IMG/VR virus record: IMGVR_UViG_3300027575_000004
Location: 1-58,054 of that record
Origin: a virus
Lineage: Duplodnaviria; Caudoviricetes
Length of the DNA stretch: 58,054 nucleotides
Direction: 5' to 3' (one strand)
Below, one piece after another: positions 5,617-48,617 of this stretch. How positions within the stretch are numbered: the first letter of the stretch is position 1; every line of letters starts with the position of its first letter. The position numbers were made by a program, and so were the translations under genes. The notes beneath the pieces are model-generated. The model ran no database searches. It was not told the origin of the DNA and saw only the letters and a list, made by a program, of their open reading frames with translations.

Positions 5617-5648
5617 GCCCCGCTGGGAAACTGGCGGGGCTTTTCTTT
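5617..5648 (+). terminator. intrinsic terminator at the convergence of early and late arms
   Basis: GCCCCGC...GCGGGGC stem followed by TTTTCTTT. Confidence 0.8.
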
Positions 5649-5652
5649 GTCG

Positions 5653-5985
5653 TCAGTGCCGCAAAAAGAATGTCGCCACAGATACGATCAACACGACCGC
5701 GCTGAATATCCATCCTCCCATTTCACGGATACCGGAACCTCGCGCACGATTCTCGCCTACCTGAGTCGTCATGGCTTCAAGACGACTTTCGAGATTTTTG
5801 ATTTGCAGGTTGACTTCTACAGTGCGGGCGAAAGTAGCGCCTTGATCGGCTAGCGTTGCTCGGAATTCATTCATCCCGTCAAGACGTTTTTCAGCCGCTG
5901 CTAATGCTGCTTGGACCGCATCGTGTTGATCGGAGAAGCGGCGGTCTACGTATTCCTTCAGAGTCCATGCGTTCCAGCTCCACAC
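5653..5985 (-). CDS. coiled-coil membrane protein (lysis-cassette type)
   Basis: coiled coil followed by C-terminal hydrophobic helix GGWIFSAVVLIVSVATFFL. Confidence 0.65.
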   Translation of the reverse strand: MWSWNAWTLKEYVDRRFSDQHDAVQAALAAAEKRLDGMNEFRATLADQGATFARTVEVNLQIKNLESRLEAMTTQVGENRARGSGIREMGGWIFSAVVLIVSVATFFLRH

Positions 5986-6164: not shown

Positions 6165-6380
6165 TTAGGAAGTCGGCAATCTCGTAAACCACATCTCCAC
6201 GATATCCTTTTCAGGGCTTGGAGGTGCGGAATCGAGAAGTGTTTTCAAATCGGCTCTTGGAAGCGATAGCGCCTTTCCAGAGTGTGTATCCGTCATGACG
6301 ATGGGCCAGTTGTCGGGAGCCTGTTCGTCTCCGAGAATGATCCCGCCGCCGCCGCCTTGCTGTTGTCCACCGCCGCTCAT
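6165..6380 (-). CDS. small hypothetical protein
   Basis: overlaps upstream stop; similar to 5990-6160. Confidence 0.6.
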   Translation of the reverse strand: MSGGGQQQGGGGGIILGDEQAPDNWPIVMTDTHSGKALSLPRADLKTLLDSAPPSPEKDIVEMWFTRLPTS

Positions 6381-6712
6381 TTACGATGCTCCTTCGGTTG
6401 AATCGTTAGATTATGAGGCATGAATGTTGCGGGAATTTGAATGCCATGCTGGACGATCAAGCCTTCGAGATTGTTCATCGTCCAGTTTGCGAGGTCCGCT
6501 TGCCTCTGTGCCCTTGCTGCCGCTTCGTAAGCGTCATCGGCTCTATCGTCGGCGCGAGCCGCGAGCCATATACAGAGCATCATTGCGAGGAAGAATATGG
6601 CTAGGACGATGGCAAAGTATTTGATGCCTTCGAGGCCCGAAACGGAAACATTAACCGACTGCCCCGACCCGTTCGTGCGAGCAGCCATCCCCTCAACTTC
6701 GTCGTCCGTCAC
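6377..6712 (-). CDS. single-pass membrane protein
   Basis: hydrophobic YFAIVLAIFFLAMMLCIWLAA segment. Confidence 0.65.
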   Translation of the reverse strand: MTDDEVEGMAARTNGSGQSVNVSVSGLEGIKYFAIVLAIFFLAMMLCIWLAARADDRADDAYEAAARAQRQADLANWTMNNLEGLIVQHGIQIPATFMPHNLTIQPKEHRK

Positions 6713-7156: not shown

Positions 7157-7372
7157 TCACTGTGGGCCCTTGCACGCTTGGCGCAGGGCTTCGTAGTCCT
7201 CTATCCACACTTGCGTCTCACGAGGGTCTTGGGAAAGTTCGTTGAGCAGGACTTGCTGATCGAGGGCGGAATAATTGACCAGCGGAGGGCAATTGATGGG
7301 AGGGGGTGCGGAAGTGCAGCCAGCGAGCGCGGCGCACGATATCACAAAAACTGCGCCCCGCGCGCTACGCAT
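7157..7372 (-). CDS. lipoprotein, putative outer-membrane spanin (Rz1-like)
   Basis: lipobox ALAGC, then Pro-rich PPPINCPPL and DYEALRQAC. Confidence 0.65.
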   Translation of the reverse strand: MRSARGAVFVISCAALAGCTSAPPPINCPPLVNYSALDQQVLLNELSQDPRETQVWIEDYEALRQACKGPQ

Positions 7373-7477
7373 CGTGCCATTCCCATTTCTTGCCGTTGTG
7401 ATCCTGTAAGATGCAGCGCCAGAAGCCGATACGCTTACCTGTGCGATCATCGCGTGCCCAAATGACTTGCCCGACCA

Positions 7478-7843
7478 TCACGCCTTACCGGCTTGAAGTT
7501 GTGCCACGAGCGAAGCCAGCGCCTTGGGCGAGCCTGACGCGGCGGCTATCTGTGGAATAGCCTGCGGATTTTCTGCTACTGTAGAAGCCCCTGTGGCCGT
7601 GGCAGCGGTGATTTTGCCTTTGACAAGATAAGCGTCGGCAACTGACCATCCGTAACTTCCGAGGGCCACGATGACGCCACCAATTGCCGCCGACATGGCC
7701 GCTGCATCGGCTGCTTTTGCCCCGTGAGCCAGCATCCAAGTGGCAACGAATGTTCCTGCGACCGTTCCGAGCCATCTGGCCCCTTTGGCGATTTGAGCGG
7801 CGATCATGCTGTTACCGCCTAGAGCTTGGAGAATTGACCACAT
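7478..7843 (-). CDS. putative holin
   Basis: GAAGGGG RBS before ATG 7843; two TM helices, second ending YGWS. Confidence 0.6.
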   Translation of the reverse strand: MWSILQALGGNSMIAAQIAKGARWLGTVAGTFVATWMLAHGAKAADAAAMSAAIGGVIVALGSYGWSVADAYLVKGKITAATATGASTVAENPQAIPQIAAASGSPKALASLVAQLQAGKA

Positions 7844-7914
7844 GATTTGCCCCTTCGAAGCTTGGGAGAATGTAGCGCGGGAAATGGGGATTTCATAGGG
7901 GGAGATGGGATTAG

Positions 7915-8210
7915 ACAATAGCCCTCACCCCGCTACCCTGCCTGCCAGAGACGCAGGCGGCGGTATCTTGGGACAGGCTTTAGAACGTATAAGCCGGACT
8001 ACATTTTTTCGAGTGCCGCTCGCTGCCATCGGTCGCTACTCCCGCCGATACCGGGATTCTCTGTGTGCTGGCTTTGTATAGGCCCGGGTTATTCCTAGTT
8101 CACCTGCGAAACTGTCGGACGGTACGGGGGTACTACCGCGCTCTTTTCCGGTCTTGGTTAGCGGGGACCGGCAGCCGTGGGCAGCGATATCGGACCGGCT
8201 GATCTACTAG
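7915..8210 (-). ncRNA. candidate structured non-coding RNA (element A); strand inferred
   Basis: ORF-free; complementary pairs 7992-7997/8195-8200, 8020-8027/8180-8187, 8148-8153/8166-8171, 7940-7945/7953-7958, crossing pair 7928-7935/8159-8166. Confidence 0.5.
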
Positions 8211-8213
8211 GGC

Positions 8214-8325
8214 TTGCGCGAAACACGTCCTGTGGCTATATCAAAGCCTTGGACGAATGAGCGCCCGGCACGGCAAATCATTCGGAAGGGCCGGTCGCTG
8301 GTGGCGATTCCGGCCCTTCTCCATT
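8214..8325 (+). promoter_or_regulatory. sigma70-type promoter and short hairpin-ended transcript antisense to the late arm
   Basis: TTGCGC-17-TATATC (8214-8242); 10-bp stem GAAGGGCCGG/CCGGCCCTTC 8285-8319. Confidence 0.5.
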
Positions 8326-8468
8326 TCTAAGCCCACTTTCTCTCAAAAACAAGCGCGACAAGCGGGCCACTCCAAAGCCCGCGTAGGAGCGCGCGAGACT
8401 CAGAAGGTGAAGACCTATGAACGCCTCGTATGAGGCGACTGTAGGATGACGGGAAGGGCACTGAGGCC

Positions 8469-8500
8469 AAAGAAAACGGCGACCCTTTCGAGCCGCCGCC
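8469..8500 (-). terminator. intrinsic terminator
   Basis: minus strand GCGGCGGCTC-GAAA-GGGTCGCCGT-TTTCTTT. Confidence 0.75.
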
Positions 8501-8548
8501 AAGTTAAGCCGGGTATGGGGGCTGGGTGTCCCGGCGATGGAAAGTGGC

Positions 8549-8911
8549 TTAGGAAGCCGCTGTGGTCGATGGCGTCAGGGAATTCGTCACGGACGATTCC
8601 AGAAGGGTGATAATGGCCCGAATCTCTTTCGCCCCTTCCGCCGTTTCGTCGCTCACGAATTCATTCAGCGTGGCTGTGGAGGCAACACCGATAGCGTCAA
8701 GCGTGGACGATCCCGCCGCTACCGCCGCAGCATATTTTGCTTGCCAATATGCGAGGCATTGCGAGAAGATGGCCCTCTGGTCGGGAAGGAATCCATTCGC
8801 AATGACCATGAAACCAGCGCCGAACGCAGCGCCAATCGAGGCCAGTTTCTGTTCCGCGTAATTTTCCAGAGGCGTGATGAGTGCGCCAAGCGCCGTGAGA
8901 ATCCAAGACAT
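8549..8911 (-). CDS. Ala-rich hypothetical protein
   Basis: AAGGAG RBS before ATG 8911. Confidence 0.65.
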   Translation of the reverse strand: MSWILTALGALITPLENYAEQKLASIGAAFGAGFMVIANGFLPDQRAIFSQCLAYWQAKYAAAVAAGSSTLDAIGVASTATLNEFVSDETAEGAKEIRAIITLLESSVTNSLTPSTTAAS

Positions 8912-8970
8912 TCGTATTTCTCCTTGCAAGGGTTATCCGCGTGGGATCAGGACGCGGGGGAAATAAGTTG

Positions 8971-9064
8971 CGGTATGCCGAGCGGGATTTGAACCCGCGC
9001 TGCCCGGGGTCTTGGGCCACCACGGCTTGCATCCCCGCGCTCTACCAGACTGAGCTATCGGCGA
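8971..9064 (-). tRNA. tRNA-like gene (pseudo/atypical; possible GCA anticodon) with enlarged anticodon loop
   Basis: D arm GCTC-AGTCTGGTA-GAGC, T arm GCGGG-TTCAAAT-CCCGC, anticodon stem CGGGG/CCCCG enclosing 23 nt; only 5-bp acceptor stem; ends ACCG. Confidence 0.65.
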
Positions 9065-9133
9065 CTACGCTGGTTAGACGTAGCCATATACCGCTCCCAT
9101 CATCATGCCCGATTGTTGACACAGGAACAAGGG

Positions 9134-12100
9134 CTAAGGAATATCATACCCTGAAATGCTTGCCGTCAGTGGTGCCCCGCTCCCAGCGGGAGCCCTGTAA
9201 TACATCGTCTGTGGCGTTGCAAGAATAAGCTTTGGGAATGGCTGAACGATCACCACCGCAGACGATCCCTCTACAAAGAATGGAAGCTCGTTTGCTGGCG
9301 CTGTATCAGACGCGAGATACCCATAGAGCGGATCGCTCGTGGCTCCTGAAACATTCCCATACACCGCGATTGCATTCGGAGGAACAGCGCTGGATAGCGA
9401 TACGCTCGTAAGCGATGTCTGGACTCCCCCGCTCAGCACCACCACAGGTGCCATCGTGAAGGACTTCCCTCGCTGATACCCTACAACAAACTGGGAGGCT
9501 ACGTTCGTGGGCCAAGTTCCCAGCAGGAATGATGCCGTGTACCCGGCAGGAAGGTTTGCGCCAGCATAAATCGTGCTTGTCGATGTTGATGAATTACATG
9601 CGAGGATAGACGCAGTTTGCGTCGTCGGGTTGTAAATCGCATATAGCGAAACGAAACCCAGCGATGGCGCTGACCCCGTGTCCATTCCGCCCGCACCCGT
9701 CGTCGCAAGATTAATCGCTTCCGAATAGGACGGGAGACTGTAGAACGTACCGTTAAGCGCTGTCCCGACCGTAACAACGTCCGCTGTGAAGGTCGCCGTT
9801 GCGCTCGCACCCGCATTCGACATAGCCGCATTGATTGGAGGAACTAATGTTTCCGATTCTGCCGTAGCAGTGAGCGGTTGCACCCATGATACTGTTCCGC
9901 CGCTCGTATATGTTCCTGCCCAGATGGAACCGACAAGATCGAAATATCCGCTTCCAGTATTCACATTCGCAATCGGCCAATAACCTGTTGCGTTCGGAAC
10001 TCCATTGAATCCCGAGAGCGTCACGTAATCGCCGTTCGCAAGCCCATTAACCTGCGAAGGCGTACTCATTGTAATGCGGATTAAGCCACTGCCGTTGTTC
10101 GATGGCGTCGCGCCGCTATATGGACCCACGCACGTTCCGAAGTTAGCTGCCCCGATAGTCGCCGTAGGAGCGAGAAACAAATCGGGCGAGACGATACTGG
10201 AAACGACAACGTAGCCTGTTGATCTATACCCGGCTCCACTGTTGTAGGTGGTCCCACCCACATCGAATTGCGTCGAGTTTACAACGCTCGTGATTGTCGC
10301 TTCGAAAACGTCTGCGGAATATGGCGAGGTGCCTCCTACACCACTAACTGTGACGACCGTCCCACCCGCAGCGGCATTGCCTGCTTTCAAGAAGGCAGTC
10401 GATGGCACAGTCAATCGACATCTACCTGAGCCGCCCGAACTTACAGCAGTAACTGGGAGAACAATCGGATTCCCTGTGATGACAAAACCGCCATAAGTCC
10501 ATGCATTTGCATATGGCGTATTTGAGAGTGTGAATTGCGTCGTTGAAATGGAGAGATTGACGGATTGATACCCGGCCGCTCCATTCGTGGGGTTGTTCTG
10601 TGTATTGACCGCAGTGGCACTGTTTGCTTCTGTTGTGCCGCCAACTCCGAAGACATAGACAAGTTGGCCCTGAGTAAGCTGACCGGGAATAGCGTCCGTT
10701 GTGAGTTCAACGTTGCCGTCAATACCCGGCGCTGTGCCTAAGACACGAACAATTGTCGGCACGCCTTGAGATGGAACGACATTCAAGCTGCCGTCTTCAA
10801 GGCGTGTATATATGCTGGAAATATTTCCAACATAGTCGAGAAGCTGAAGTTGATCCTGAGAGTCCTGAACTTTGTAGAACGTGTGCGCCGGATAAGTCTG
10901 GCTTGTGCTCGTCTGCATTTGGTTGAGCAGAGCAATCGTCGCAGAGGTCGCTAAGCTTAACCCCGGCGCGGGATTGAACCAGTTTCCCGAAACCGAAACC
11001 GGAGAGATGGCAGAAAATCCGTAATGGCTTCCGTTGGCCCACCGATAAACAAGTGGCATTGGGCCGGTGAAGACCGTCGCCATGGTCGGCGAACTCACAG
11101 AATTGGAATCCGTTACGATAAACGGCCCACTCGAACTATTGGCCGCGCTTCCAAGAAGCTCAAGCACATTACCAAATGGAGTTTCAGAGTACGGATAAAG
11201 CGCATTGTTGACATAGCGTGCTAGAACGTACGTGCCCCCAGCTCCTGCCGAGAAGCTGTAAAAGTAATTGAAGGCCGCCGCGTTGTTGCCATGTTGCTTG
11301 GCACTGATTTCGGTGTCCTGAAGAACTAAAAATCTTCCAAAATGAGTATGTCCCTCTCGATCATTGTTGGCCGCCATGAATACATTGCTGTTCGTATAGC
11401 CGAGCCTGATTGCGTCGCCGTTCAGATAGTTACACCGCAGATTGTTGAATATGTTTTGCGCGCACGAATTGTCCCACACGATCCCAAGATCGTTGTCGTT
11501 CATCGTCAGGCAGTATGAAGTTGTAGTTACTGTGCCGGTATAACTGGCAGAATTTGCGAATGACCCATACGATACGTCCAGATCAAGATTGTTGAAGATG
11601 TTGTTGGCGGGCGGACTCACATTGTTCGTGTTCCGCATGTCGAGCGCGGAAATCAACGCATTCGTTATCCAAAGATCGTTGTGCGTAGCGCCGTATAGAT
11701 TCACAAGTTGATAGGCATACTCACAGATGCCATTCGCGTCGATCCGCATTCCGCTGCAAGACGTGCCGGAAATCTCAACCCCGGCCGTGTTCATGCCAAG
11801 CAGGAAAAGCGGCGCTGTATTTGTCCCAATGGCTTTGATCCACGTCGAGCCGTCGCCGCCCGAACGTGACCCCGCCCCAACAAGCGTAATGCCGGAATGG
11901 TCTTGAAGATTGTAGCGCCCCGAAGTTGCGAGCGCGCCGGGGCCTCCGGGGATATAGAGTTGACAGCCGCCTGACACCGCAATCGCGGCATTAATACCGG
12001 CGGTTATGGTCGTGTTGTTGTCCGTCACGCCGTCGTAGACGAGAGGCCCAAAATCGGCCAACGAAAGCACGTTCGGATTACCCGAACCGCCGGAAGAGAC

Positions 12101-12391
12101 GGAAATATTATCCCGTGTCCAAATCGGACTTGTGGGTGGGTTTGTATCGGTCGGATTGGTGAATACGAATTTGTAGGCCACGCCTGAGGGCAGCCATATG
12201 TCGGCCTCGCCTAGACTATCTAAAATAATCGGGTTAACGTTGGCAACAGTGCCGGTCGAATCAGTGTAGGTGGCAAGTTGGCTTACGGTTCCAGCGGCAT
12301 AGGTGTAAACTAACCCTCCCACATAGGGGGAGCCTGTCAATGGGTTCAAAAACAACTGCCGAGGGACAGGCGAAAGCGTCGTTGCGGTCAT
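9134..12391 (-). CDS. tailspike/tail fibre: N-terminal virion-binding domain, beta-helix region, C-terminal modules
   Basis: N-term VYTYAAGT...TYTDSTG...[15 protein letters not shown]; DFG...DGVTDN...I..AI pectate-lyase-type start; N-rich beta-helix. Confidence 0.85.
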
Positions 12392-12926: not shown

Positions 12927-14249
12927 TCACGGCTTCATCTCTAGCGCAAGGCCGAATTCATGGAGCTTTGGAAGGGCAGTAATCACTTTCTCTCCAACAT
13001 CTGTGCGAAACATGGAATTTGGGAATTTAACCTCGTTCACGCTCTTATACACGCGCTCGCGAGCGTCTGAAACGGTTTTCCCCGTCCCTGTCACACACAA
13101 AACATATTCGCCAGTCGTTTGTGTAATCGGGCCTTCGATTACCTTCCCGTCTTCCATCTTAGGCCCCTTGCAGATCATGACGCCGATTGGATGCATGGCG
13201 TCGTCATCGTCTTCAAGCCCTGTAATCGGATTACCCTCAACATCTTCCGGCTTGGAAATCGCATAGGGAAATTTCGGTTGAGCCATCACAACGCCTATAG
13301 CCGCGTCGTATTTGACCTTGAGCGTATCGTCGCCGTCGAGTAAATCGCGCATCCACTGCGCCGGATCGCGGCTTGATTGCATCGCCATGCGAATGAAGAA
13401 GTCGGGCCAGCCCAGACGCGCGGTAAACTCGAAGGGCCACACTTTCCCTTGCTTATCCACCCCACAACCGACAGCGAAGTCTCCCGTGTGGCCGGACTTG
13501 AGCAAGTAGTTTTCCATCGGCTTGAGAAATTGGTCTACTAGCGGGTCCGACTTAACGTAAGCCGTGGCCGTACCCATTTCGCCGGTCGCACATCCGATTT
13601 CGCCGTTCATCAGCTTCTTGTGCTCGAAGCTGATTTCGTATTTGTCTGACAGAAATCCCTGCGGCCCGAACCAGCCTGCAATCCCGATTTCTGCGAGCAT
13701 GTCGATTTTCTCTTGGAGCATACACGGCCCCTTGAGTTTCATGCCACGCTTAATCTGGCGCTCAATCCACCCGACCATTTCAGCAGGATCGCACGATACG
13801 AAAGTGAGGGACTTGTCGTCCTCGTGACCAAGCGGCTTGAAGACAAAGCACTTATCGGATTTGCGTGCGAACTTGGATGCCGCTTCGAGACTGTCAAACA
13901 TCTCGTAAGGCGGAACTGCAATGCCCGCTTCCTTCATCGCTTCCATACCAATACCGCGCTCGATCTCAAGCTGTGCGCTTCGATATGTCGGCCCGAATAT
14001 TTTGAAGCCAAGTTCGCGGAAACGATCTAACTCCCGCATATATTTGCAATTGCCCGATGTAATCACGAGGCCGTCACGTGCCCACCCCATAGATGACCGC
14101 CAGTCGTCTACTTTTTTAAAGCCATGAAACCCGTTACCGTCTTTGGAAGTGCGAGAATCTTGGAACCAGCGAACGTCATGCCCCGCTTCCGTGCAACGCA
14201 ACACAAAATCGAGGAAATGATTCTCGACATCAATGGCAAGAACGCGCAT
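12927..14249 (-). CDS. PurD (GAR synthetase)-like ATP-grasp ligase
   Basis: IFGPT...AQLE, FVFKP, EHKKLMNGEIGCATGEMG, EFTARLGWP, TGTGKTVSDARERVY, FRTDVG. Confidence 0.8.
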   Translation of the reverse strand: MRVLAIDVENHFLDFVLRCTEAGHDVRWFQDSRTSKDGNGFHGFKKVDDWRSSMGWARDGLVITSGNCKYMRELDRFRELGFKIFGPTYRSAQLEIERGIGMEAMKEAGIAVPPYEMFDSLEAASKFARKSDKCFVFKPLGHEDDKSLTFVSCDPAEMVGWIERQIKRGMKLKGPCMLQEKIDMLAEIGIAGWFGPQGFLSDKYEISFEHKKLMNGEIGCATGEMGTATAYVKSDPLVDQFLKPMENYLLKSGHTGDFAVGCGVDKQGKVWPFEFTARLGWPDFFIRMAMQSSRDPAQWMRDLLDGDDTLKVKYDAAIGVVMAQPKFPYAISKPEDVEGNPITGLEDDDDAMHPIGVMICKGPKMEDGKVIEGPITQTTGEYVLCVTGTGKTVSDARERVYKSVNEVKFPNSMFRTDVGEKVITALPKLHEFGLALEMKP

Positions 14250-17946: not shown

Positions 17947-18686
17947 TATGGGTTTGTAAAGCTGGCGTCTCCATACCAGCCATTTCCGCCAGACTGAGGA
18001 TTGAAACCGCTGTTGTTGTTCAAAATCTGATACAGCATCGCCGTGCTGCTCAAGCCGTTCAGGCCCGAACCAGCCGCATTCGCAAGCCCGATTGTTCCTG
18101 CCGCACTCGCATTTCCCGCGCCTACGATATTGTTGCCGACGCTTTGTCCGACTTGGCTACTCAAAGCTCCAAGATTGCCCGCTGCGTTTTGTCCTGACCC
18201 TGCTACAGTCTGAAGCTGATCGAACTTCTGATTTTGCGCGTTGACGTAGGCGTTGTAGGCATTCCAATAGTCCTGATTTGCGACGCCCTCACCGTAACTC
18301 GTGAGGCCCTTAAGGGTGTTACCCGACTTCACACCGCCAGTTGCAGATGCGCTATTCAGGATAGCGTTCTCGCCCTGATTCATCTGGAATTCATAGCCGG
18401 GGGAGTTCTTAAAATCCGCGAGTGTGAAAGGCGCGTTGAGCGGTCCAGTGCCGGTAACATTTCCGCCACCCGTTCCAATACCGGCTTGAAGAAATGGGAG
18501 TGCACCAGTGCCCGCTTGCAGAAATGGCGCTTCGTTCTGTTCGGTTTGTTCGAACATCTGAAGCTGAAGCGCGGATGCGTTATTGGCAGCGTTGGCCTCG
18601 GTGTTGGCCGCGCTTTCCGACGCACTCCCAGAAATCAACGCTCCGCCGATTGTAGCGGCTGCGGCAGCCGCGAATCCCCAAGGAAT
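17946..18686 (-). CDS. gp7-like DNA ejection protein; probable ATT start at 18686
   Basis: SPGYEFQMNQG, GGVKSGNTLKGL motifs; frame extends 16 codons upstream of the TTG to IPWGFAAAAAATIGGA with GGAG RBS. Confidence 0.75.
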   Translation of the reverse strand: MPWGFAAAAAATIGGALISGSASESAANTEANAANNASALQLQMFEQTEQNEAPFLQAGTGALPFLQAGIGTGGGNVTGTGPLNAPFTLADFKNSPGYEFQMNQGENAILNSASATGGVKSGNTLKGLTSYGEGVANQDYWNAYNAYVNAQNQKFDQLQTVAGSGQNAAGNLGALSSQVGQSVGNNIVGAGNASAAGTIGLANAAGSGLNGLSSTAMLYQILNNNSGFNPQSGGNGWYGDASFTNP

Positions 18687-19270
18687 CTTACACTCTCCAT
18701 GCCGTACATTTCAGTACGAACGCATACGATGAGAGTCACCCTTGCCTTGCCGCTTCGGTTGACGACCCAATGTAACTTCCTATTGTCGAAAAGCCAACAC
18801 GAGCCGGGCTTTGGATTAAGCGTTTCTTTCACGCCACCGTGCTCACAGACAAAATCGGCTCCCGGCTCACTTTCAATCGAAATATAGAATTTGCGGTATT
18901 GCTCAACGTGCCAGCCATGATCGACGTGCGGCTTGATCTCACTTCCCGCAGGAACACGAGTAATCAGGACACCCCCAAGCATCTCGCCTTGAACCCGAGC
19001 CATGAGATTAAAGATGATCGGACGTAAGGCTGGGAGCGCGTTCCATGCGGGATACCAGACAGGAACATGCTCATCATTGAATCCGACGAAATCCGGCATC
19101 GCCTTGGCAAGATCGTTGTACCGGACCCAGATATCGTCCGTGCCCCTGAATGGCGTTCCCGGCCTCTGCATTCGGCTGCTATGGACGTTCCAAAGCTCCG
19201 GCTGCACGTCCAACTGATTACGCAGCATTGAAACGTCTATGCCGTCACAGATTTTGAGGAAGTGGCGCAC
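18635..19270 (-). CDS. aspartyl/asparaginyl beta-hydroxylase-like 2OG-Fe(II) dioxygenase
   Basis: IKPHVD (HxD), WLFDNRKLHWVVN, RVTLIVCVR; GTG start at 19270 inferred. Confidence 0.85.
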   Translation of the reverse strand: MRHFLKICDGIDVSMLRNQLDVQPELWNVHSSRMQRPGTPFRGTDDIWVRYNDLAKAMPDFVGFNDEHVPVWYPAWNALPALRPIIFNLMARVQGEMLGGVLITRVPAGSEIKPHVDHGWHVEQYRKFYISIESEPGADFVCEHGGVKETLNPKPGSCWLFDNRKLHWVVNRSGKARVTLIVCVRTEMYGMESVRFLGDSRLPQPLQSAER

Positions 19271-19847
19271 GAGATATGACCTTGAGTTCGTCCGGCAGGT
19301 GCCAGCCGTTATGAGGGGCATTTGCCAATGCCGCGTTGTAATCACGTCGGCTTTGGATATTTAGTCGCATCAACTGCCGAATATCGGGAAATTCTTCGTC
19401 GGGCAACAGCCATTCGAGACAGGCAACAACCGTCTCAAAATCGTCCAGTGCATCATAAGGTACTGATCGGCAAAGCTCATGATGCTTGGCGTAATCAAGC
19501 CATGCAAGCGCGAGGTCGCAATATCGGCTGTAATACGCTCGGCTTTCGCGGCTTGACTGCTGCCAGTAATTCTCGAACGACCTGATTACATCGGCCTTTG
19601 GACGCTCGATTATCAGGGTTCTGGGACCAAGTTCGTCTAGGATGCGCTCAATCTGAAACGCGAGCGACGAATCGGAAATCCCCATCGAGATGCCTACGGA
19701 CGAATGCCAGAATTCAGCCAAGGCCTCGAAGCTGTCGAGATGGGGTGTGGGCTCGTGAAAGCAGGCCGACTCAGGGCCGCTTGTCGCGACCGCGAACCAT
19801 GCCGTCCGCGATCTCGGCAACCCGGTTATCAGGTATCGCCCACTCAT
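19245..19847 (-). CDS. sulfotransferase-like P-loop protein
   Basis: N-terminal ITGLPRSRTAW resembles the PAPS-binding GxPRSGT loop; CFHEP motif. Confidence 0.6.
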   Translation of the reverse strand: MSGRYLITGLPRSRTAWFAVATSGPESACFHEPTPHLDSFEALAEFWHSSVGISMGISDSSLAFQIERILDELGPRTLIIERPKADVIRSFENYWQQSSRESRAYYSRYCDLALAWLDYAKHHELCRSVPYDALDDFETVVACLEWLLPDEEFPDIRQLMRLNIQSRRDYNAALANAPHNGWHLPDELKVISRAPLPQNL

Positions 19848-26954: not shown

Positions 26955-27239
26955 TTAATGACTGGTGATCGGTTCAAGCCGGGCATTGCCCCATGTCGGC
27001 AACTTACCCAACGCAATTTGAGAATTCACGGCGACTAGGATCATTTCCGCCGCTTCCTGCCCAATCTTCGGGCCAACAGGATACGGCAACGGTTCACCCT
27101 TCACGTCCACATGGACCTGAAAGAGCGGCTGAATTTCCTTCGGCTGCGTAAAGCGCGATGAAATCTCGCGGGGTATAGGTTCTCCCGCTTCATGGATCGG
27201 CTTCAAACGAACGCCGCGATGGTCACGCATTTTTCGCAT
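26955..27239 (-). CDS. hypothetical protein
   Basis: TGATG coupling to HNH gene. Confidence 0.55.
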   Translation of the reverse strand: MRKMRDHRGVRLKPIHEAGEPIPREISSRFTQPKEIQPLFQVHVDVKGEPLPYPVGPKIGQEAAEMILVAVNSQIALGKLPTWGNARLEPITSH

Positions 27240-28018
27240 CAGTTGACGTTTCTCCAAGAACGACGCTTGCGAATATCACAAATCGTCGCCGCACTCACGC
27301 CATAAGCTTCAGCCAATAGCACGCCGGAGATATTCGTGTCACGAATGGCCGTGATGTCGCGCTCAGTAAACACTTCGGAACGCTGCTCTCCCGCCGCGCC
27401 GCGCTTGTTACGGACAATCGTATCGGCTTGGACTTCTTGCCGAGTCGTGCGGGCTTTGATCGCGAGGACCGTCTGCTTGTGAACACCGTATTCGGCGGCG
27501 ATTACAGCATAGGGGCGAGCATCAGCGAGAATGGCCACAACCTGCTCGTCCGATAGTTTTGCTACCTTCTGGGCCTGCACGAGTCTGCCATAACGGTCGC
27601 GACCCTTACGCATCATGTCGGCGGTGTTTTCGGCTGGCGTACCAGCGTCCAAGTGAGCCGGATTCACGCACTGCGGATTGTCGCAAGAGTGCATGATGAG
27701 TTGATGGCGACCGAGAATTTCTCCGGTCGCAAGCATGTATGAAAAACGATGCGCCTTTCGGACCTTTACACCATGAATTTCGGCCGAGAAGATACCGTAG
27801 CCATCACCGTCCTTGCCTAAAGTCCAAAGCCAGCAACCGTCCGTCTTTTGGACACCCTTCCAAAAACGTTCCTCGGCGGGCAAGCCACGGTTAGCAGCCG
27901 ACAATGGGCGGACAGACACGGGCGAGCCGTGTTTTTTGTTCATCCGCCAATGGTTGACGCACATTCCCATTGCTAACACGACGTTCTCACATCCTTTGAT
28001 GCAGCAAAAATCTGACAT
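27239..28018 (-). CDS. HNH homing endonuclease
   Basis: CWLW, KAHRFSY, MHSCDNPQCVNPAHL..GT..EN..DM..KGR plus two C-terminal HTH-like repeats. Confidence 0.9.
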   Translation of the reverse strand: MSDFCCIKGCENVVLAMGMCVNHWRMNKKHGSPVSVRPLSAANRGLPAEERFWKGVQKTDGCWLWTLGKDGDGYGIFSAEIHGVKVRKAHRFSYMLATGEILGRHQLIMHSCDNPQCVNPAHLDAGTPAENTADMMRKGRDRYGRLVQAQKVAKLSDEQVVAILADARPYAVIAAEYGVHKQTVLAIKARTTRQEVQADTIVRNKRGAAGEQRSEVFTERDITAIRDTNISGVLLAEAYGVSAATICDIRKRRSWRNVN

Positions 28019-30523: not shown

Positions 30524-32848
30524 TCACTCGGTATCACCACCGCTTTGATTACCGGATTTGTCCGGCTTCGGCTTGTTCGCCTGCTCTAACGATGCGGTGA
30601 GGTCTTTCACATCTCGCGCAAGATTCTGAACGTGGAAGCCGATGTGCTTCTGGAAATCGCCTTCGGCCTTCTGGACAACGCCAAACATCTTCGCTTCGAA
30701 ATCCTTCTGGATTTTTTCGAGTGCGACCGCGCGGTCCTTGTCCTTGTCGTTCAATGCAGCCATTGCGCCTTGTAGCTGTTGAGTAAGCTGTTTGATCTGC
30801 GCTTCCATGTGCTGCATGACGGCCTGAATTTGCGGCGGGATATCTTTCTGATCGGGCGTCAAAAGCTGCGGCGGGACAGCCTTCGCCAAACGTGCGGCCA
30901 TTTCTTCCGCACCAGGCCAGTCCTGATACTTGGCGATAAGGTCCGCAACGAGTTGAGCCGTATTCGGCATCGCCTTCGCGAACGCCATCATGGACTCGGC
31001 GGCTTCGATGCGTTTTGTGGCATAAGACGGACCAATCGTAACCGTCACGCCATACTTGCCGAACTTCGGATTGAATATCTTAAGTTTCTTCGTCTCTTGC
31101 TGAACTTCTTTGTACGCTTGTGGCGCGTGCGGGTCGATTTGGATTTGTTCCTCCGTATCGTCCTCGCGAAGGATCGTCATGACCTGTTTTTTGTCGTAAA
31201 TCTTGGGAATGAGGTCGATAAATTGAGCGCCTAGAAAATGCAGAGACCTTCCAAGATTATCGACGTAATGAGACGAGCCGAGGTCGGATGACCGGCGCAT
31301 CTCGCGAATAGCGCGCCCCGAATCATCAACACGCTTTTCGCTGTTTGTCGGGTCGAAGCGAATGCCTGTCGTCGCCATCAAATCTTGCGAGGCTTGCAAC
31401 TTAAGATTTACAAACCCTGCCGGACTCCCGACCATAGCCTGACGCTGTGGTGCCGGGGCCGGTCTGCCCGCTACGCTTGTTCCCTTATAAGACAGGTACG
31501 GGAAATTGACGATGTTAGCCTGTTTCCATTCGTCCTCGTGACCTTCAATCTGCCCTTCCTCAACGATCCACGGGGCCTTGGGAGCGAGCCCGACAGTCTC
31601 GATTTCAGCATTTACCGCGTAATTATAAATGCGCTGCGCCCCCTTCGCATCCCGAATTATGCCTGAAAGTGTGACCTTGCCTTCAATGTCGATTTCGTTG
31701 CCGATGACTGGAATAATCGGTATCCACTGACCCAGCCAGATATTGCGCTCAAGAATTTCCTTAGCGGTGACTTTGTACCAGTGGATTGTCGGCGTGTGTG
31801 TCTCGCGCTCTTGCTCGACCAGCATACGCTTAGATGCGATCTTTTCCGCTACGTCGTCGTCAAGTTCGTCTTCGAACCCGGTCCAGCCGTTTTCAAGCTC
31901 AACCAGCTTACGCTTGCGATTCTTGATCTCGAAATATTCGGCAATCCGAACGCTGTCTTTTGACGACCAATCTTTGTAGCCTTCGCCCACCGATTGCTGA
32001 TCGAACGGCATGATATCGGCGTCAGGCCATTCTTCCTTAAATTCGTCGCGCGGAATAATCTCGGTGACAAATCCGAAGCGGCAGTCCGACCCATCCGGCT
32101 CTTGGTGGTCAGGGTCCAGATAGACCGTGAAGGGATTACGGATGCGCTTGACGACAATAATCTGGTTGAAACTGTCTGGAGCTTCAAACTCGGTGAGTAG
32201 TCGGAAATATCCAAAGCCACTAGTCACCGCGTCGTCAAACGCCGTATCGTAGGCGATATCGGCTTTACTATCCCGCTCAATAGCGCGGATCATGCCGCGA
32301 AACATCTTTGCGCCTTCGGGATCGCCCTTATCTCCTACCGGGCTGATATTGATGGCGGGCCTGTTCTGGCGCTGATCGTTGGTGACTTGTCGAACGAAAA
32401 CCGGGATTTTGTTAACAACCTCGCAAGGTCGTTTGTCAGCATTCCTCTGCGCCGCGACATCGGCAGAGTACTGATCGCCTTTCTTAAACTTACGGTCGCT
32501 GACGGCCTCTTTACGGTTCTCTGCTTCCCACGCCACGCAACGGTCGAAACGCTTACGTATCCGAGTGAGAATGTCTGCGTCGGATTCGTCCTCGTCCGGC
32601 GTGTTATCGGGCTTTTGAGATACCGACGTGATGTCTTTCGCTTCGGTCTTGTCCTCCGGCGAGTCTCCGTCTTCATACTCGGGTTCGTTGGTTTCCGAGT
32701 AAGCGGGGGGAGCATTAGCCGGGCGAGGGTCTTTGACCTTGCGCTTGCGTTTCTTATTTTTGACAGGGCCGACGCGGTTCATCCCATTATCAATTCTCGG
32801 CATTGAAATTTTACCGTCATCTGGCGGCTTGTCAGGGGAGTTTTTCAT
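30524..32848 (-). CDS. portal protein, P22 type
   Basis: RPCEVVNKI, QRQNRP, GFGYFRL, IPIIPVIG, GIIRDAKGAQRIYNY, GPSYATKRIEA. Confidence 0.92.
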   Translation of the reverse strand: MKNSPDKPPDDGKISMPRIDNGMNRVGPVKNKKRKRKVKDPRPANAPPAYSETNEPEYEDGDSPEDKTEAKDITSVSQKPDNTPDEDESDADILTRIRKRFDRCVAWEAENRKEAVSDRKFKKGDQYSADVAAQRNADKRPCEVVNKIPVFVRQVTNDQRQNRPAINISPVGDKGDPEGAKMFRGMIRAIERDSKADIAYDTAFDDAVTSGFGYFRLLTEFEAPDSFNQIIVVKRIRNPFTVYLDPDHQEPDGSDCRFGFVTEIIPRDEFKEEWPDADIMPFDQQSVGEGYKDWSSKDSVRIAEYFEIKNRKRKLVELENGWTGFEDELDDDVAEKIASKRMLVEQERETHTPTIHWYKVTAKEILERNIWLGQWIPIIPVIGNEIDIEGKVTLSGIIRDAKGAQRIYNYAVNAEIETVGLAPKAPWIVEEGQIEGHEDEWKQANIVNFPYLSYKGTSVAGRPAPAPQRQAMVGSPAGFVNLKLQASQDLMATTGIRFDPTNSEKRVDDSGRAIREMRRSSDLGSSHYVDNLGRSLHFLGAQFIDLIPKIYDKKQVMTILREDDTEEQIQIDPHAPQAYKEVQQETKKLKIFNPKFGKYGVTVTIGPSYATKRIEAAESMMAFAKAMPNTAQLVADLIAKYQDWPGAEEMAARLAKAVPPQLLTPDQKDIPPQIQAVMQHMEAQIKQLTQQLQGAMAALNDKDKDRAVALEKIQKDFEAKMFGVVQKAEGDFQKHIGFHVQNLARDVKDLTASLEQANKPKPDKSGNQSGGDTE

Positions 32849-33360
32849 TATGCCGCCGTCTTGAAGTTTAAGACCGCGAACTCGCCGTGAATTTTCTTGG
32901 CTGCCTTATCGTAAGCACGAGCGGCTTCTTCTTGGGTTCCAAATGAACCTAAGAATACCTTCTTTCCGCCAGAACAGATGCGCGCTTGCCACCTCTTTCG
33001 TTTCGGATGGACGCCCAAATAAATGGACTTTCCTGTCCACTTCCGTCTGTTCGCCATGTTTTGAAGTCTTGTGGCTGCTCGCAAGTTTGTAAAAATATCG
33101 TTCGCTTTATTGTGATCCCGATGGTCAATATCGCCAGACGGCCACTCTCCGGTCATATAAAGCCACGCGAGGCGGCTACCAAGCCACAGCCCGCCAGCTA
33201 ACCCAATCTGCAAGCGTTTATCTGGCCTCCGCGAGCCAGCCCTTGCTCCGGGCATATTGCTCGACATTTTTTTCAGCCACGTCCACTCGCCGGTCAGGGG
33301 GTCATAGTGAATGGCTTCGCGCAGCCACTCAGCGGTGAAAGACCCATTGCGAGGAACCAT
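32848..33360 (-). CDS. HNH endonuclease with AP2 DNA-binding domain
   Basis: [49 protein letters not shown]. Confidence 0.9.
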
Positions 33361-36591: not shown

Positions 36592-37932
36592 CTACGTCCC
36601 CATCCATCCCTGTCCGACTTCGCTGCCTATTTGGATAGTGCGGACGGCGGGACGGGATGGCGTGCGTTTGTCCGGCACCCTGTAGCCCGTGGCGAGGTAG
36701 CGGAAGGCGTCGGAACCGTTTGAAGACCAATCATGATACGGCTCGGTCGAGAACATCTTGCGGGCCTCGATCCATTGATAATGATAGCTCACGAGGGCGA
36801 GCCTGCCGCGTTCGGTCTTGGCTCTATCGAAATAGCATCGAGCGATGAAAGCGCGGGCTATGTTGATACCTTCCTGCTTGTCTCCACGCTCTAACACACT
36901 GAATTTGAAGCCAAAAGACTTCGCAACCTCGAATGTGGATTTACCGCCCGCTGCAAATTGGTGCGCGTCAAGATCGTGCGGGCCAGTGTGCGTACCCCAG
37001 AGATACGGCAGGCTTTGAAGGTGTTTAATGTAGTGGTCTATGCCCACGCCTACGCCAGAATTCTCATAATAATCAATGACATGAACTTCACGGCCCGCCG
37101 TCTGTGTGAACCAGATTGCAGTCGGGTCGCCCGTCCCAATGTCCCACCATGTATCGACGGGTAGCTCGGGCTGCCACGGTACAGCGCAAATGCGCCCGTC
37201 TTGCTCGGCTTTTTCCATCTGCTTGCCGAAGATGGAGCCTTGCTGAACGCCTTCGAACGAGCAGTAATACTCTTGTTGGATCATGTCTTCCGACATGCCT
37301 TCGCGGCGCTCTGCGTCCATGTCAGCGTCGGTTAAGACGCCCGTATCTCGGATCGTGAGCTTTTGACAAAACCATGCCGGATCGCCAGCTTGCATGAGCT
37401 TTTGGGCGGTTTCGTACAGCGTATGTCCATGATTCTTGCCGCGGGGCGTGTAATCGAATATGGCCCAGCCGCCATTTTCTCTTAGGATCGGGCGCACATA
37501 ATCCCATGCTGAAGGGTCTTGGAGGCTGTATTCGGCGAAGACAACGCCAATCGGGTTTGTGGACATGATGGCGTCGATTGAATCGGAACCGACAAGCTGA
37601 AATATCGAGCCGTTCTTGAGGGTTAGCTTGAGTTCCGTCTCATTCTTGGCATTGATGATTTCAGGGGGGAAGTGGCCTAGAAACGGGAAGCCTTCACGGT
37701 CCATGCCGTCCCAGATGGCCTTTTTTGCCTGTTTGTAAGTAGGAAACAGGTAAAAATATGTCCCAACACGCTCGAATGCCCGCTTGGCTGTGAAGTTGAT
37801 GAATGTTTTTTCCTTACCGGAGCGGCGATGCCAAACGGCGACCGCGCGAGTAGCACCATTATCGAGCGCAGATAAGACCGGCAACTGATAGAAGCGCGGC
37901 GTGAACCTATGCGGGAGGGTTATGAGCGGCAT
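36592..37932 (-). CDS. terL: terminase large subunit
   Basis: Walker A WHRRSGK, Walker B-like VVFAEY, YTPRGKNH, nuclease WDIG..D.TAIW, HDWSSNGSDAFRY. Confidence 0.95.
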   Translation of the reverse strand: MPLITLPHRFTPRFYQLPVLSALDNGATRAVAVWHRRSGKEKTFINFTAKRAFERVGTYFYLFPTYKQAKKAIWDGMDREGFPFLGHFPPEIINAKNETELKLTLKNGSIFQLVGSDSIDAIMSTNPIGVVFAEYSLQDPSAWDYVRPILRENGGWAIFDYTPRGKNHGHTLYETAQKLMQAGDPAWFCQKLTIRDTGVLTDADMDAERREGMSEDMIQQEYYCSFEGVQQGSIFGKQMEKAEQDGRICAVPWQPELPVDTWWDIGTGDPTAIWFTQTAGREVHVIDYYENSGVGVGIDHYIKHLQSLPYLWGTHTGPHDLDAHQFAAGGKSTFEVAKSFGFKFSVLERGDKQEGINIARAFIARCYFDRAKTERGRLALVSYHYQWIEARKMFSTEPYHDWSSNGSDAFRYLATGYRVPDKRTPSRPAVRTIQIGSEVGQGWMGT

Positions 37933-41952: not shown

Positions 41953-42618
41953 TCAGGCTTCCGTGAGGTCAAGCCACTGACAGCCTGGCGCTTTCATGTC
42001 GATCAGGATTTGAACTACCCCCTCGGCAAAAGCCGCGAGGGACTTGTCCCGAGCGACCGCGGCGGCGGCGTAGGCGGCGGCGGCGTAGGCGGCGGCGGCG
42101 TAGGCGGCGGCGGCGTAGGCGGCGGCGGCGTAGGCGGCGGCGGCGACGGCGGCGCGAGCCACTTCCCGCGCATCCAGCGCCGATTGTTTCGTGCCATCAG
42201 CCTCACAGACCTTCGCAGCGTCCAGAAGCGCAGCAGCGTGGTGCTTATACTTTTGGACAGACGCGGCGGCACGTAACGCTTGCGGAACGCTTGTGCGAAT
42301 CGCCAATTCTGCGACGCGCCGGGTAAACTCCTTGTCGTCGAGATGTCCCACGCTTCCGAGTTGGGCTACAGCCAACCTGCGAAGGCCCTTGGCGCGGGCT
42401 TCATTGGACGACCACCTCGAATCATTCAGCCGAATTTTGAGAGCCCTAAGAGCACGAGATACGCAATCAGGATCATCGCCGTGCGGCAAGCCAAGCGCAT
42501 AGCAGACTGCGGCCTCAACACACATTTTACCCGGCTCGGCAATACCGACACCCGAAACGAGCCCGGCGTCCACAACCGTCAAAACCTTCTTGGCGACTTC
42601 TGCCGTAATAGCGTGCAT
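41953..42618 (-). CDS. hypothetical protein with (AAAAY)5 tract
   Basis: AAGGGAG RBS; MCVEAAV...HGDDPDCV...IRLND. Confidence 0.7.
   Translation of the reverse strand: MHAITAEVAKKVLTVVDAGLVSGVGIAEPGKMCVEAAVCYALGLPHGDDPDCVSRALRALKIRLNDSRWSSNEARAKGLRRLAVAQLGSVGHLDDKEFTRRVAELAIRTSVPQALRAAASVQKYKHHAAALLDAAKVCEADGTKQSALDAREVARAAVAAAAYAAAAYAAAAYAAAAYAAAAYAAAAVARDKSLAAFAEGVVQILIDMKAPGCQWLDLTEA
42058..42144. repeat. 15-bp tandem repeat ((GCC)4 TAC on minus strand) x5
   Basis: GTA recurs at 42070, 42085, 42100, 42115, 42130. Confidence 0.9.
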
Positions 42619-43971: not shown

Positions 43972-44490
43972 CTACCCCTCCCTGATCGTTACTTCGCCAA
44001 GGGCGCGGTGAATTTGGTTGATGAAGTTCTCGCGTACCCATTTGGCTTTGAAGGGGCTTTGGAATGTGATCGTGGCGGGAGGGCCTTCGCTGAACTCCGT
44101 ACCGCCGAACCACGCATCGAAGATCGCCGGATTCCCAAGCTGTTGAATGAGCTTACTCGCCTTCCCGTTCCATTGCAATCTTGTGGCGTCGTTAATTGCT
44201 GTGTTTTGTTGGGTTTGGGCTTCGACGACTGGTAGGAACCCCTCCCAGCGATTTTGATTGAGCCATGTCGAGAAATGAGCGCGCCGAATGTGCTGGTGAA
44301 CTGGCCGTCCCTGATTCTGCTTCACGAGATCGCGCAAGTAGGCTTGGATGCACAGAACGATTGTGTTGATGTCGGGCCGTTCCTTCTCGCTTTTGTTCCA
44401 CGCTTTGAAAGCTGTTTTCTTTGGGTCCGCTGGGGGTGCGCCGTAGGCTTTCCATGCGCGCGAAAAATCTATCGGATATTCGATCATCAT
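43972..44490 (-). CDS. replication protein: replisome-organiser/DnaT-like module fused to DnaA domain I-like C-terminus
   Basis: F..AW..Y...KKTAFKAW, HFSTWLNQNRWE; C-term IFDAWF...SPFKAKWVRENF..QI; TAATG coupling at 44490. Confidence 0.7.
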   Translation of the reverse strand: MMIEYPIDFSRAWKAYGAPPADPKKTAFKAWNKSEKERPDINTIVLCIQAYLRDLVKQNQGRPVHQHIRRAHFSTWLNQNRWEGFLPVVEAQTQQNTAINDATRLQWNGKASKLIQQLGNPAIFDAWFGGTEFSEGPPATITFQSPFKAKWVRENFINQIHRALGEVTIREG

Positions 44491-44735
44491 TAGCGCGTGC
44501 CCCATCCCGAAAAAGGCGCGTTCGGATGCGAGCGTGAAAATGCCTTTCCTTTGCCGTGGTTTTTCTTTTTCCAAACGGCTCCAGTACGACCAGTTTTCTC
44601 GCGGTGCGCTCGCACTGCAGAAATATTCTTGATACGAAGTTTTTCGCGGCGACGCTTTCGTTTCGCGGTTTGCTTGTTCATCGGATCGGCACCGTTGCCA
44701 TAAGAATCTTCTGGGTCAATTTTCTGTTTTCGCAT
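44490..44735 (-). CDS. highly basic small protein
   Basis: KRKRRREKLR, WKKKNHGKGK; stop overlaps replication gene start. Confidence 0.5.
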   Translation of the reverse strand: MRKQKIDPEDSYGNGADPMNKQTAKRKRRREKLRIKNISAVRAHREKTGRTGAVWKKKNHGKGKAFSRSHPNAPFSGWGTR

Positions 44736-44774
44736 GGGCGTTTGCAGATTTTCGAGGTCGTTATGCCTACTGAG

Positions 44775-45135
44775 TATTAATCTTCTAGGTGCTCATGCCC
44801 TTTGGTGAGTTCCGTTGTGATGGGCAGAAGACTCCTAGTCCCAAAATCGCTCGCGCGAAATTTGGTTGGAGTCCCTGCCCGGTGCCGACATGCCCACTGG
44901 AGCCGTCCGCCGCTTAGGGCAACCGCCTAGCCGCGTATGGCTGGCGGTCGGGGGTTTTTCTTCAGAGGTTTACGCCCCTCTTGCAGGCCGGTATGAGCCC
45001 CTTACAAGACTACCGTCAGCCCCTATGCCCGCGTCCCGACAGTGGGGCCTTCTCCATTCCGCGTGCTGTCAGGAACCCGTCAGAATGCCTCTGACGCCGA
45101 GATCAAGTCTCGGGCGCGGAAGCCGATGGGATTTA
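44775..45135 (-). ncRNA. candidate structured non-coding RNA (element B) upstream of replication genes; strand inferred
   Basis: hairpins 45097-45113, 45078-45096, 44822-44880; closing pair 45057-45063/45115-45121; crossing pair 45034-45042/45066-45074. Confidence 0.55.
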
Positions 45136-45141
45136 GAGGGG

Positions 45142-45260
45142 TTGACCTTGGAGGGTACTACGGCTAGATAAAAACCAGCGTCGCCTCTTGGCCTTCCGAT
45201 CTCTACCATCGGATGAGAGGCGAGCGGCGCGAACCGCAAAGCCTCGACGCAATTTATTCA
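45142..45260 (+). promoter_or_regulatory. sigma70-type promoter and short structured antisense transcript
   Basis: TTGACC-17-TAGATA (45142-45170); stem TCGCCTCT/AGAGGCGA with inner TCCGAT/ATCGGA. Confidence 0.5.
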
Positions 45261-45318
45261 CGATGCGCCCCAACGCTGTCAAGTGGCCCGATCAAAAATC
45301 GGGTCGCTTGGCCGCGCA

Positions 45319-45609
45319 TCACAGAATGACACTTTCCACGTATTCCTTTAGTCCATCCCAATCTTCTTCATTCCCGTAATGTTCGATTCGACCCATCTTG
45401 ACGCGGAGTTCGTCAAGTTCGTCGGAACAATCTTCGTCTATCCAATAATCTTCGGGGCCGAGAGAGGCCCAGCGAGCTTGCAGGGCGCGATCTACATCTT
45501 CCATGCCGATGGAACGCAGAAGCTCCGAAATCGCCTCCATGGCCTGCTCCATGCCGCCTGCGCCCATTCGGGTTAAGACTTGCACTTCCGTCATCGGAAC
45601 CATTGTCAC
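45319..45609 (-). CDS. acidic hypothetical protein
   Basis: ORF coupled to upstream gene. Confidence 0.55.
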   Translation of the reverse strand: MTMVPMTEVQVLTRMGAGGMEQAMEAISELLRSIGMEDVDRALQARWASLGPEDYWIDEDCSDELDELRVKMGRIEHYGNEEDWDGLKEYVESVIL

Positions 45610-48070: not shown

Positions 48071-48111
48071 CAAGACACAAGACACAAGACACAAGACACA
48101 AGACACAAGAC
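48071..48111 (+). repeat. heptamer tandem repeat (CAAGACA) x5 plus CAAGAC
   Basis: read directly; lies between promoter and GAGGA RBS. Confidence 0.95.
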
Positions 48112-48617
48112 GCTAGAGGAAGCAAAACATGGACATGTTAGTCAGCGAACACTTTCCGCTTCGTCCATACGAGACATTTACCGTCAAGGACGGCGAAGGC
48201 CGCGTGGTCGAAACTTGGAGTTACACAGGCTCGACAAAGCAGCATTGTCCGAAGGGCAAGGTTCGCGCTTCCTTCCATGTTCGCGGCTATCGCGGCTATC
48301 GCGGCGCTCAGGCGATCTAAGCCCATGACACACCGCATCCAAATCGAATCCCCTGACGATACAGGACGCTGGCTCAATACGGGAGACAGCTTTGAAGTGG
48401 ATTGCGACCCGGAGGATTTGCCTCATCATGCGAGGCTGGCGCTTTCCGAAGCCATTTGTTTCGAGGGCTTTAGAGGCGGTCCATTACGTGCCGTCATCAT
48501 CCCCAGCGAAGAAGGCTATCCCATGCAAACCATTATGGGAACGGGGCCAGAAGCCGATCCGCGCTTGAACGAATATATCGCACGGGAAGAGGAACGACAA
48601 TCGGAAAGGGCGATGTC

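Follow-up and report, generated by a model that had tools for sequence, protein, structure and literature searches.

The locus described here is a gap without genes near 8 kb in a complete viral record of 58,054 nt from soil metagenomes, the whole of which was analyzed and is referred to below as the window. A block of minus-strand genes extends from about 47 kb down to position 5653, and the order within it is tail fibre, tRNA-like gene, ORF126, gap and a row of small ORFs. The tail fibre gene (9134-12391, minus strand) was recognized by its match to a PHROG tail fibre family (E 2.9e-31). ORF126 occupies 8549-8911 on the minus strand, and the first gene below the gap is a minus-strand holin-like gene at 7478-7843, the product of which has 109-146 aa depending on the start chosen. 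Elsewhere in the window, a P22-type portal gene (30524-32848, E 5e-168), coat and scaffold genes, a large terminase gene (36592-37932), a RecT gene and a replication-initiator-like gene at 44 kb (43972-44574) were detected, and a six-frame search of the whole record for a tyrosine integrase found none. Two free-standing, minus-strand HNH homing-endonuclease-like genes (27239-28018 and 32848-33360) lie among the head genes; the one adjoining the portal gene matches a PHROG HNH endonuclease (E 3.8e-53), and the one beside the coat gene has weak HNH_3 and HTH matches. Two minus-strand genes among the tail genes (12927-14249 and 18635-19345) encode unusual enzymes; one is an ATP-grasp protein whose C-domain is of the GARS type (E 2.4e-13), and the other resembles an Asp/Asn beta-hydroxylase (E 8e-8). 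Two DNA data sets that contain the stretch gave an identical 11,619-nt contig, at depths of 12 and 11.9, and are probably one data set or the very source of the record; the DNA reads of this contig showed no variants and no joints.

Between the tail fibre gene and ORF126 lies the tRNA-like gene (8972-9064, minus strand), the only tRNA call in the record (Cys, anticodon GCA, 93 nt, 41.2 bits with Rfam). Its anticodon loop is enlarged by about 19 bases, and the top of its acceptor stem has two non-standard pairs; it may represent a tRNA-like relic or else a tRNA that carries a very short insert.

The gap had originally been placed upstream of the lysis genes, a reasonable description given the holin-like and spanin-like ORFs that lie directly downstream of it. 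A comparison of Atlas features (0.92, 181 shared) brought up Phage_holin_10 in 14 of 30 matches for the holin-like protein, which we take as a lead only, and a Pfam search with this protein gave no match. The product of ORF 7157-7450 has a match in phrog_26778 (E 2.7e-5) and a weak one in an Rz-like spanin family (E 0.0071); it appears from its sequence to bear a lipoprotein-type signal and resembles an o-spanin. That of ORF 6377-6712 appears to have a single membrane segment with a charged helical tail behind it and resembles an i-spanin. Paralogy of the two flanking membrane proteins was considered and rejected (E 33). Endolysins of the Phage_lysozyme, Amidase_2, SLT, GH19, GH108 and Peptidase_M15_4 families were sought in six frames over the whole record without a match, and the lytic enzyme of this phage may be of an unrecognized kind.

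The lower border of the gap depends on where the holin-like gene starts. If the ORF is lengthened in frame up to the TTG at 7918, the summed codon score goes from about 28.5 to 35.7 and the product has 146 aa (7478-7918), with 25 additional codons at the N-terminus. The public protein set starts the gene at Met 7807. Positions 7844-7918 may be coding, in which case the gap may begin at 7919; on the minus strand they would represent either a 5' leader of the holin-like gene or an N-terminal extension of it. The minus strand is C-rich at 7844-7903 (23 C vs 9 G). On the plus strand, 7880-7912 holds a G-quadruplex-like motif with G-runs of 3, 4, 5 and 3 spaced by 4, 8 and 4 bases; the minus strand of this segment is C-rich and G-poor, and lies just upstream of the holin-like gene or inside its start.

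Reading frames and codon usage both confirmed the earlier observation that no credible ORF lies between ORF126 and the holin-like gene. The longest stop-to-stop frames in the gap, both on the plus strand, span 76 and 69 aa, and a minus-strand frame of 98 aa overlaps the terminator and runs into the end of ORF126. Codon usage was assessed in 150-nt windows with a log-odds score trained on 19 long genes of the same phage. Coding windows score 0.277 ± 0.134 (5th percentile 0.06), the holin-like gene 0.234 and ORF126 0.272; among windows starting at 7850-8400 the score is 0.05 or lower in every frame, and six candidate ORFs in the gap score from -0.14 to -0.39. None of the 10 longest gap frames matched Pfam at E values up to 1, and three of the 10 matched PHROGs with E values of 0.049-0.23 only, which is chance level. 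The gap is non-coding. A decayed gene, such as the endolysin remnant named as a possibility at the outset, was looked for and none was detected, as judged by the lack of family similarity and of residual codon bias. The possibility of a MITE or other insertion was rejected, as there are no terminal inverted repeats of at least 15 nt, and an 8-nt direct repeat at 7990/8505 is attributable to chance.

At the upper end of the gap, the minus-strand terminator of the original prediction is present, with its U-run, at 8500-8475. This predicted intrinsic terminator (T1; 8465-8500, minus strand) lies 48 nt downstream of ORF126 and comprises 11 pairs, including 7 G-C pairs, a 4-nt loop and a U-rich tail holding the 5 or more T in 8 by which the terminator scan defines a tail. 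Its folding energy is -18.8 kcal/mol (z -2.70; one of 200 shuffles was as good). Only two sites in the genome, T1 and a plus-strand site at 5617-5640, have 10 or more pairs of which 7 or more are G-C. The latter is the strongest terminator of the genome (10 pairs, 8 G-C, z -4.4) and closes the plus-strand block; it sits where two gene blocks converge, with an A-run before it and a U-run after it, and may act in both directions. Terminator-like sites in general occur genome-wide at the frequency seen in shuffled sequence (26 vs 22.8, 22 vs 23.6 and 21 vs 21.5). Judged by its letters, T1 is a canonical, textbook intrinsic terminator: it shares with the intrinsic terminators of phage operons a G+C-rich stem, a 4-nt loop, a U-rich tail and a position on the strand of the upstream gene, and its tail resembles that of the site at 5617-5640. 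Unlike standard terminators, T1 has behind it another 230 nt or so of stable hairpins, among them a branched unit that has no U-tract. Another terminator-like hairpin (T2; 8345-8394, minus strand) has a U5 tail, and its inner part is listed by the scan; its stability does not exceed chance (z -0.77; equalled by 37 of 200 shuffles).

Real excess structure in the gap is confined to 8245-8500. The segment 8200-8505 has a z-score of -2.57 on the minus strand, reached by 0 of 100 shuffles, and of -2.22 on the plus strand, reached by 2 of 100. Its most prominent component is a Y-shaped unit at 8247-8333, in which a 6-bp closing stem surrounds two adjacent hairpins, one with a 7-bp arm (8254-8260/8278-8284) and one with a perfect 10-bp arm (8285-8294/8310-8319). 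Positions 8245-8335 give z -3.26 on the plus strand and -3.29 on the minus strand (one of 200 shuffles each), and 8236-8340 gives -3.19 on the minus strand. The 10-bp stem has a pair probability of 0.93-0.96 on both strands, and the double hairpin lacks a proper U-tract on either. Between the Y-shaped unit and T1, further small hairpins lie at 8336-8470, for example a 6-bp stem at 8422-8437; the excess here is modest and limited to the plus strand (z -2.44, 3 of 200 shuffles, vs -0.60, 55 of 200, on the minus strand). The folding energies of 2316 windows of 200 nt, covering both strands of the whole genome, were regressed on base composition, and the plus-strand window starting at 8251 is the second most stable of all (z -4.09).

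The remainder of the gap does not bear out the large structured element that had been proposed for 7850-8470, most of which folds no better than shuffled controls. The complementary words cited in its favor do exist in the letters, both the nested pairs (7992-7997/8195-8200 and 8020-8027/8180-8187) and the 8-mer that crosses them (7928-7935/8159-8166). The domain that encloses the long-range pairs (7985-8207) has z -1.30 on the plus strand and +0.43 on the minus strand, and its stability is reached by 23 and 131 of 200 shuffles, respectively. The plus strand of 7850-8140 gives z +0.68. The minus strand, which is the gene strand, is at or below shuffle level throughout 7850-8245, with z +0.13 at 7850-7990, +1.91 at 7990-8139 (198 of 200 shuffles fold at least as well) and +1.41 at 8100-8245. 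Composition-corrected stability in windows starting at 7851-8101 ranges from z -0.80 to +1.40. Over the whole 705 nt, the minus strand has z -1.11 and the plus strand z -2.27 (20 shuffles each), the latter value being carried by 8245-8500. The two nested helices have pair probabilities of 0.98-0.99 on the plus strand and only 0.006 and 0.08 on the minus strand, where the flanking genes lie; that of the crossing helix is 0. Inverted repeats in 7850-8470 were counted against 500 dinucleotide shuffles. There are 6 perfect inverted 8-mers, vs 3.5 ± 2.4 in shuffles (fraction reaching this number 0.176), and one inverted 10-mer, vs 0.23 (0.156); repeats of 7 to 10 nt are within shuffle expectation, and only 6-mers are enriched (80 vs 55; 0.004). 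The long-range pairs are real letters, yet they are what DNA of 58% G+C yields by chance. As a corrective, complementary words of 6-8 bp in DNA rich in G+C do not amount to a large RNA structure.

The gap had also been likened to a non-coding stretch at 45 kb. Downstream of this second large gap (44736-45318, about 583 nt) are a small basic ORF and a gene for a 200-aa protein whose similarity to replication-initiator profiles is limited to their C-terminal half. The gross arrangement is indeed common to the two gaps: each runs from a minus-strand gene through a hairpin-rich unit of 90-250 nt and a non-coding spacer of about 400 nt to another minus-strand gene. At 45 kb the hairpin unit comes immediately after ORF 45319-45609, in the corresponding end of its gap, and the plus-strand window starting at 45151 is the most stable of the 2316 (z -4.46). 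The two most stable windows of the genome are thereby the hairpin units of its two largest gaps. No kinship in sequence or structure was found behind this likeness. As originally stated, there is no primary-sequence similarity, blastn of the gap against 44736-45318 giving no match; a covariance model of 8245-8335 reached at best 9.2 bits near the 45-kb unit (E 2.7), and one unit is a three-way junction and the other a four-way junction. The hairpin at 45262-45325 folds with -35.0 kcal/mol (z -6.5) on the plus strand vs -24.9 kcal/mol (z -1.7) on the minus strand, a difference of 10 kcal/mol.

The plus-strand promoter that had been proposed beside the structured element was confirmed in its letters, with TTGCGC at 8214-8219, TATATC at 8237-8242 and 17 nt between them. 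It is nevertheless a weak match that fails both promoter scans. Its hexamers agree with consensus at 3/6 and 4/6 positions, or 7/12 in all, and the consensus used may not be that of the host. By this measure the scan of 7300-9300 found no sigma-70-like sites (shuffle mean 1.0), and a looser 8-of-12 scan returned only three sites, none of them the TTGCGC/TATATC pair. Neither these scans nor a motif search located a promoter for the lysis cassette, and no 10-mer, with up to one mismatch, was shared with more than two of 24 other intergenic stretches. In both gaps an A/T-rich "-10" box directly abuts the closing stem of the hairpin unit, and these boxes could equally be taken for the U-rich tails of minus-strand hairpins; the 45-kb box corresponds on the minus strand to a U5 run that follows the stem by two bases.

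No RNA family was found for the gap. Among the Rfam 15 models, only the tRNA model (8974-9064) passes its gathering threshold, and a search of 7300-9200 with 4227 models at E values up to 10 gave three other matches of 15.9-21.5 bits, vs thresholds of 35-65.7. The covariance model of 8245-8335 found no second copy in the window, the next match (19.7 bits) lying inside a coding region, and no copy in 13 related records (best E 0.18). The search for nucleotide homologues that had been suggested as a check likewise gave none in the collections covered, which were of phages, plasmids, viral contigs and metagenomes. Blastn of the gap DNA against INPHARED phages and PLSDB plasmids gave no match, nor did blastn and nhmmer against a further set of loci; against 12 portal relatives (50-66% portal identity) the only match was 16 nt long (E 0.028), and the 10-bp hairpin, searched as one exact IUPAC pattern in metagenome contigs, gave 0 matches. 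Neither the holin-like protein nor the tail fibre matched IMG/VR proteins. ORF126 had one IMG/VR match, of 35% over 43 residues, on a 4-kb contig, and none was found in metagenome contigs. The holin-like protein retrieved only itself among 92 candidates from a set of 5.8 billion proteins, and it was present in 0 of the 12 portal relatives. Judged by these comparisons the flanking proteins are orphans, so that synteny could not be used. With no homologues found, no covariation can be demonstrated for the long-range helices.

Several known systems resemble the gap in part. The large RNAs GOLLD, ROOL and HEARO likewise involve several hundred non-coding bases in a phage beside a tRNA-like gene; the gap differs from them in matching none of the 4227 Rfam models, in folding mostly at shuffle level and in having no homologues found. 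Lambda oop and P22 sar are short phage antisense RNAs. The RNA proposed here is similar to them in that it would be about 70-80 nt long, end in a hairpin and lie on the strand opposite to its neighbors in a P22-like phage. It differs from them in having no convincing promoter or terminator tail and no sequence or Rfam relation, and the feature that it would overlap is a leader, 400 nt away from the start codon, and not a ribosome-binding site or the 3' end of a gene. Type I toxin-antitoxin loci (PMC2887945, PMC6563280) have in common with the gap a gene for a hydrophobic membrane protein, an extended non-coding stretch ahead of it and, possibly, a small RNA on the opposite strand; the protein here, of 109-146 aa, is too large, and it is holin-like and part of a lysis cassette with spanin-like genes.

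With moderate confidence, we interpret the gap as an ordinary operon boundary in a P22-like soil phage and not as a large structured RNA. Minus-strand transcription of the tail fibre gene, the tRNA-like gene and ORF126 would end at the predicted intrinsic terminator (8500-8475). The hairpins at 8247-8470, above all the Y-shaped unit, could add to termination, protect the 3' end or block read-through, and would act on minus-strand RNA. The spacer from 7919 (or 7844) to 8246, 330-400 nt of DNA that is non-coding, without excess structure and the site of the long-range pairs, would carry a promoter and a long 5' leader. These would serve the lysis cassette, composed of the holin-like protein, the o-spanin-like lipoprotein and the i-spanin-like membrane/coiled-coil protein. 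If the late unit ends at the terminator, the seven small minus-strand ORFs at 7843-5653 need a promoter of their own, and the only non-coding DNA upstream of these seven ORFs is the 8-kb gap. Consistent with this interpretation, T1 is one of only two strong terminators in the genome and is on the strand of the upstream gene, the gap is non-coding and without a Pfam family, structure is confined to 8245-8500, the layout recurs at 45 kb, and the genes downstream resemble holin and spanin genes. Against it, no promoter was located, T2 is at chance level, the double hairpin has no U-tract, and the hairpins at 8336-8470 and 45262-45325 are more stable on the plus strand, which would fit plus-strand RNAs better. 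A promoter and leader of 400 nt is also long for a phage. Nothing in the gap is outside the known kinds of phage intergenic region.

Alternatively, the spacer at 7919-8246 might have no function of its own, as a relic of a gene since lost or a scar that recombination left at a module junction; the terminator and the hairpins would then be part of the upstream unit. This is unlikely but has several points in its favor: the spacer is like random sequence in coding, folding and repeats, both flanking genes are orphans, as is expected at a mosaic junction, and the gap has the size of an endolysin gene in a genome in which six-frame searches with six Pfam families detected no endolysin. Against it, the 10 longest frames show no protein-family trace (Pfam 0/10; best PHROGs E 0.049), and there is no residual codon bias; the minus strand of 7990-8139 folds worse than 198 of 200 shuffles, which hints at selection for open RNA, and the cassette downstream would still need a promoter. 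It is distinctly unlikely that the upper part of the gap encodes a plus-strand small RNA of about 80 nt (8249 to approximately 8330) or longer, ending in the double hairpin and antisense to the minus-strand leader or to read-through, with a counterpart at 45.18-45.31 kb. The two hairpin units do constitute the top two plus-strand windows of the genome, the segments 8336-8470 and 45262-45325 are clearly more stable on that strand, and promoter-like hexamers with 17-nt spacing occur just upstream in both gaps. Yet the hexamers are weak (7/12 here) and pass neither scan, the tail that follows the 10-bp stem falls short of the scan's definition of a terminator, the double hairpin at the core has the same stability on the two strands and so carries no strand information, and there is no Rfam family, no homologue found and no similarity between the two units. 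We see a slim chance that the Y-shaped unit (8247-8333, perhaps to 8470) and the branched unit at 45.18-45.31 kb form an orphan pair of stable small phage RNAs. Such a pair, made from the plus strand and antisense to the late transcripts and to those of replication, would set the timing of lysis and of replication, with the 8-kb member acting on the long leader of the holin-like gene; it would represent a new regulatory RNA pair without relatives in Rfam.

A lysis-timing leader was also considered, in which a minus-strand 10-mer (8281-8272) in the first hairpin pairs with the start region of the holin-like gene (7851-7842) and keeps it closed until the leader is remodelled or cleaved. The complement between 8272-8281 and 7842-7851 is perfect over 10 nt, covers the ATG at 7843, appears to extend to 13 of 14 positions, and is matched in length in only 2.1% of 1000 shuffled gaps (P = 0.021). 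This explanation is nonetheless very unlikely, given that the observation is post hoc, that the pairing has a probability of 0.000 in the minus-strand ensemble, that the 45-kb gap offers nothing comparable (its longest complement is 6 nt, P 0.98), and that the true start may be at 7918 or 7807, which would place the target inside the coding region. Highly improbable, too, is a site that functions as DNA, be it for attachment, origin, packaging or an operator array, with inverted repeats bound by a dimeric protein. The equal stability of the hairpins on both strands is as expected of DNA palindromes, an odd tRNA-like gene is nearby, and lambdoid phages carry attP downstream of the tail-fibre gene; but six-frame searches found no tyrosine integrase, the gap has no iterons or repeated motifs and no AT-rich block, and the replication-initiator gene is at 44 kb. 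The suggestion of an origin RNA likewise found no support. The new large structured RNA of about 600 nt, as first proposed, can point to the high plus-strand pair probability of its nested helices (0.98-0.99) and to the plus-strand z of -2.27 for the whole 705 nt. It retains hardly any probability and is already close to refuted, with the enclosing domain (7985-8207) at chance level, the plus-strand z carried by 8245-8500, no Rfam match at E values up to 10 and no homologues found.

As a probable operon boundary, the gap matters little as it stands; it marks where the late structural unit probably ends and the lysis cassette begins. If the phage or a relative is cultured, two of its features could repay experiment, namely a holin-like and spanin-like cassette without a recognizable endolysin, and the placement of the two most stable hairpin units of the genome at the same relative position in its two largest gaps.

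Two tandem repeats were observed elsewhere in the minus-strand block and at its edge. At 42044-42163, inside a minus-strand ORF (41953-42618), a 15-nt unit occurs about eight times head to tail, with six overlapping copies of 45 nt. At 48071-48119, where the minus- and plus-strand blocks diverge, a 7-nt unit occurs about seven times in tandem, and this repeat could be an operator or iteron array.
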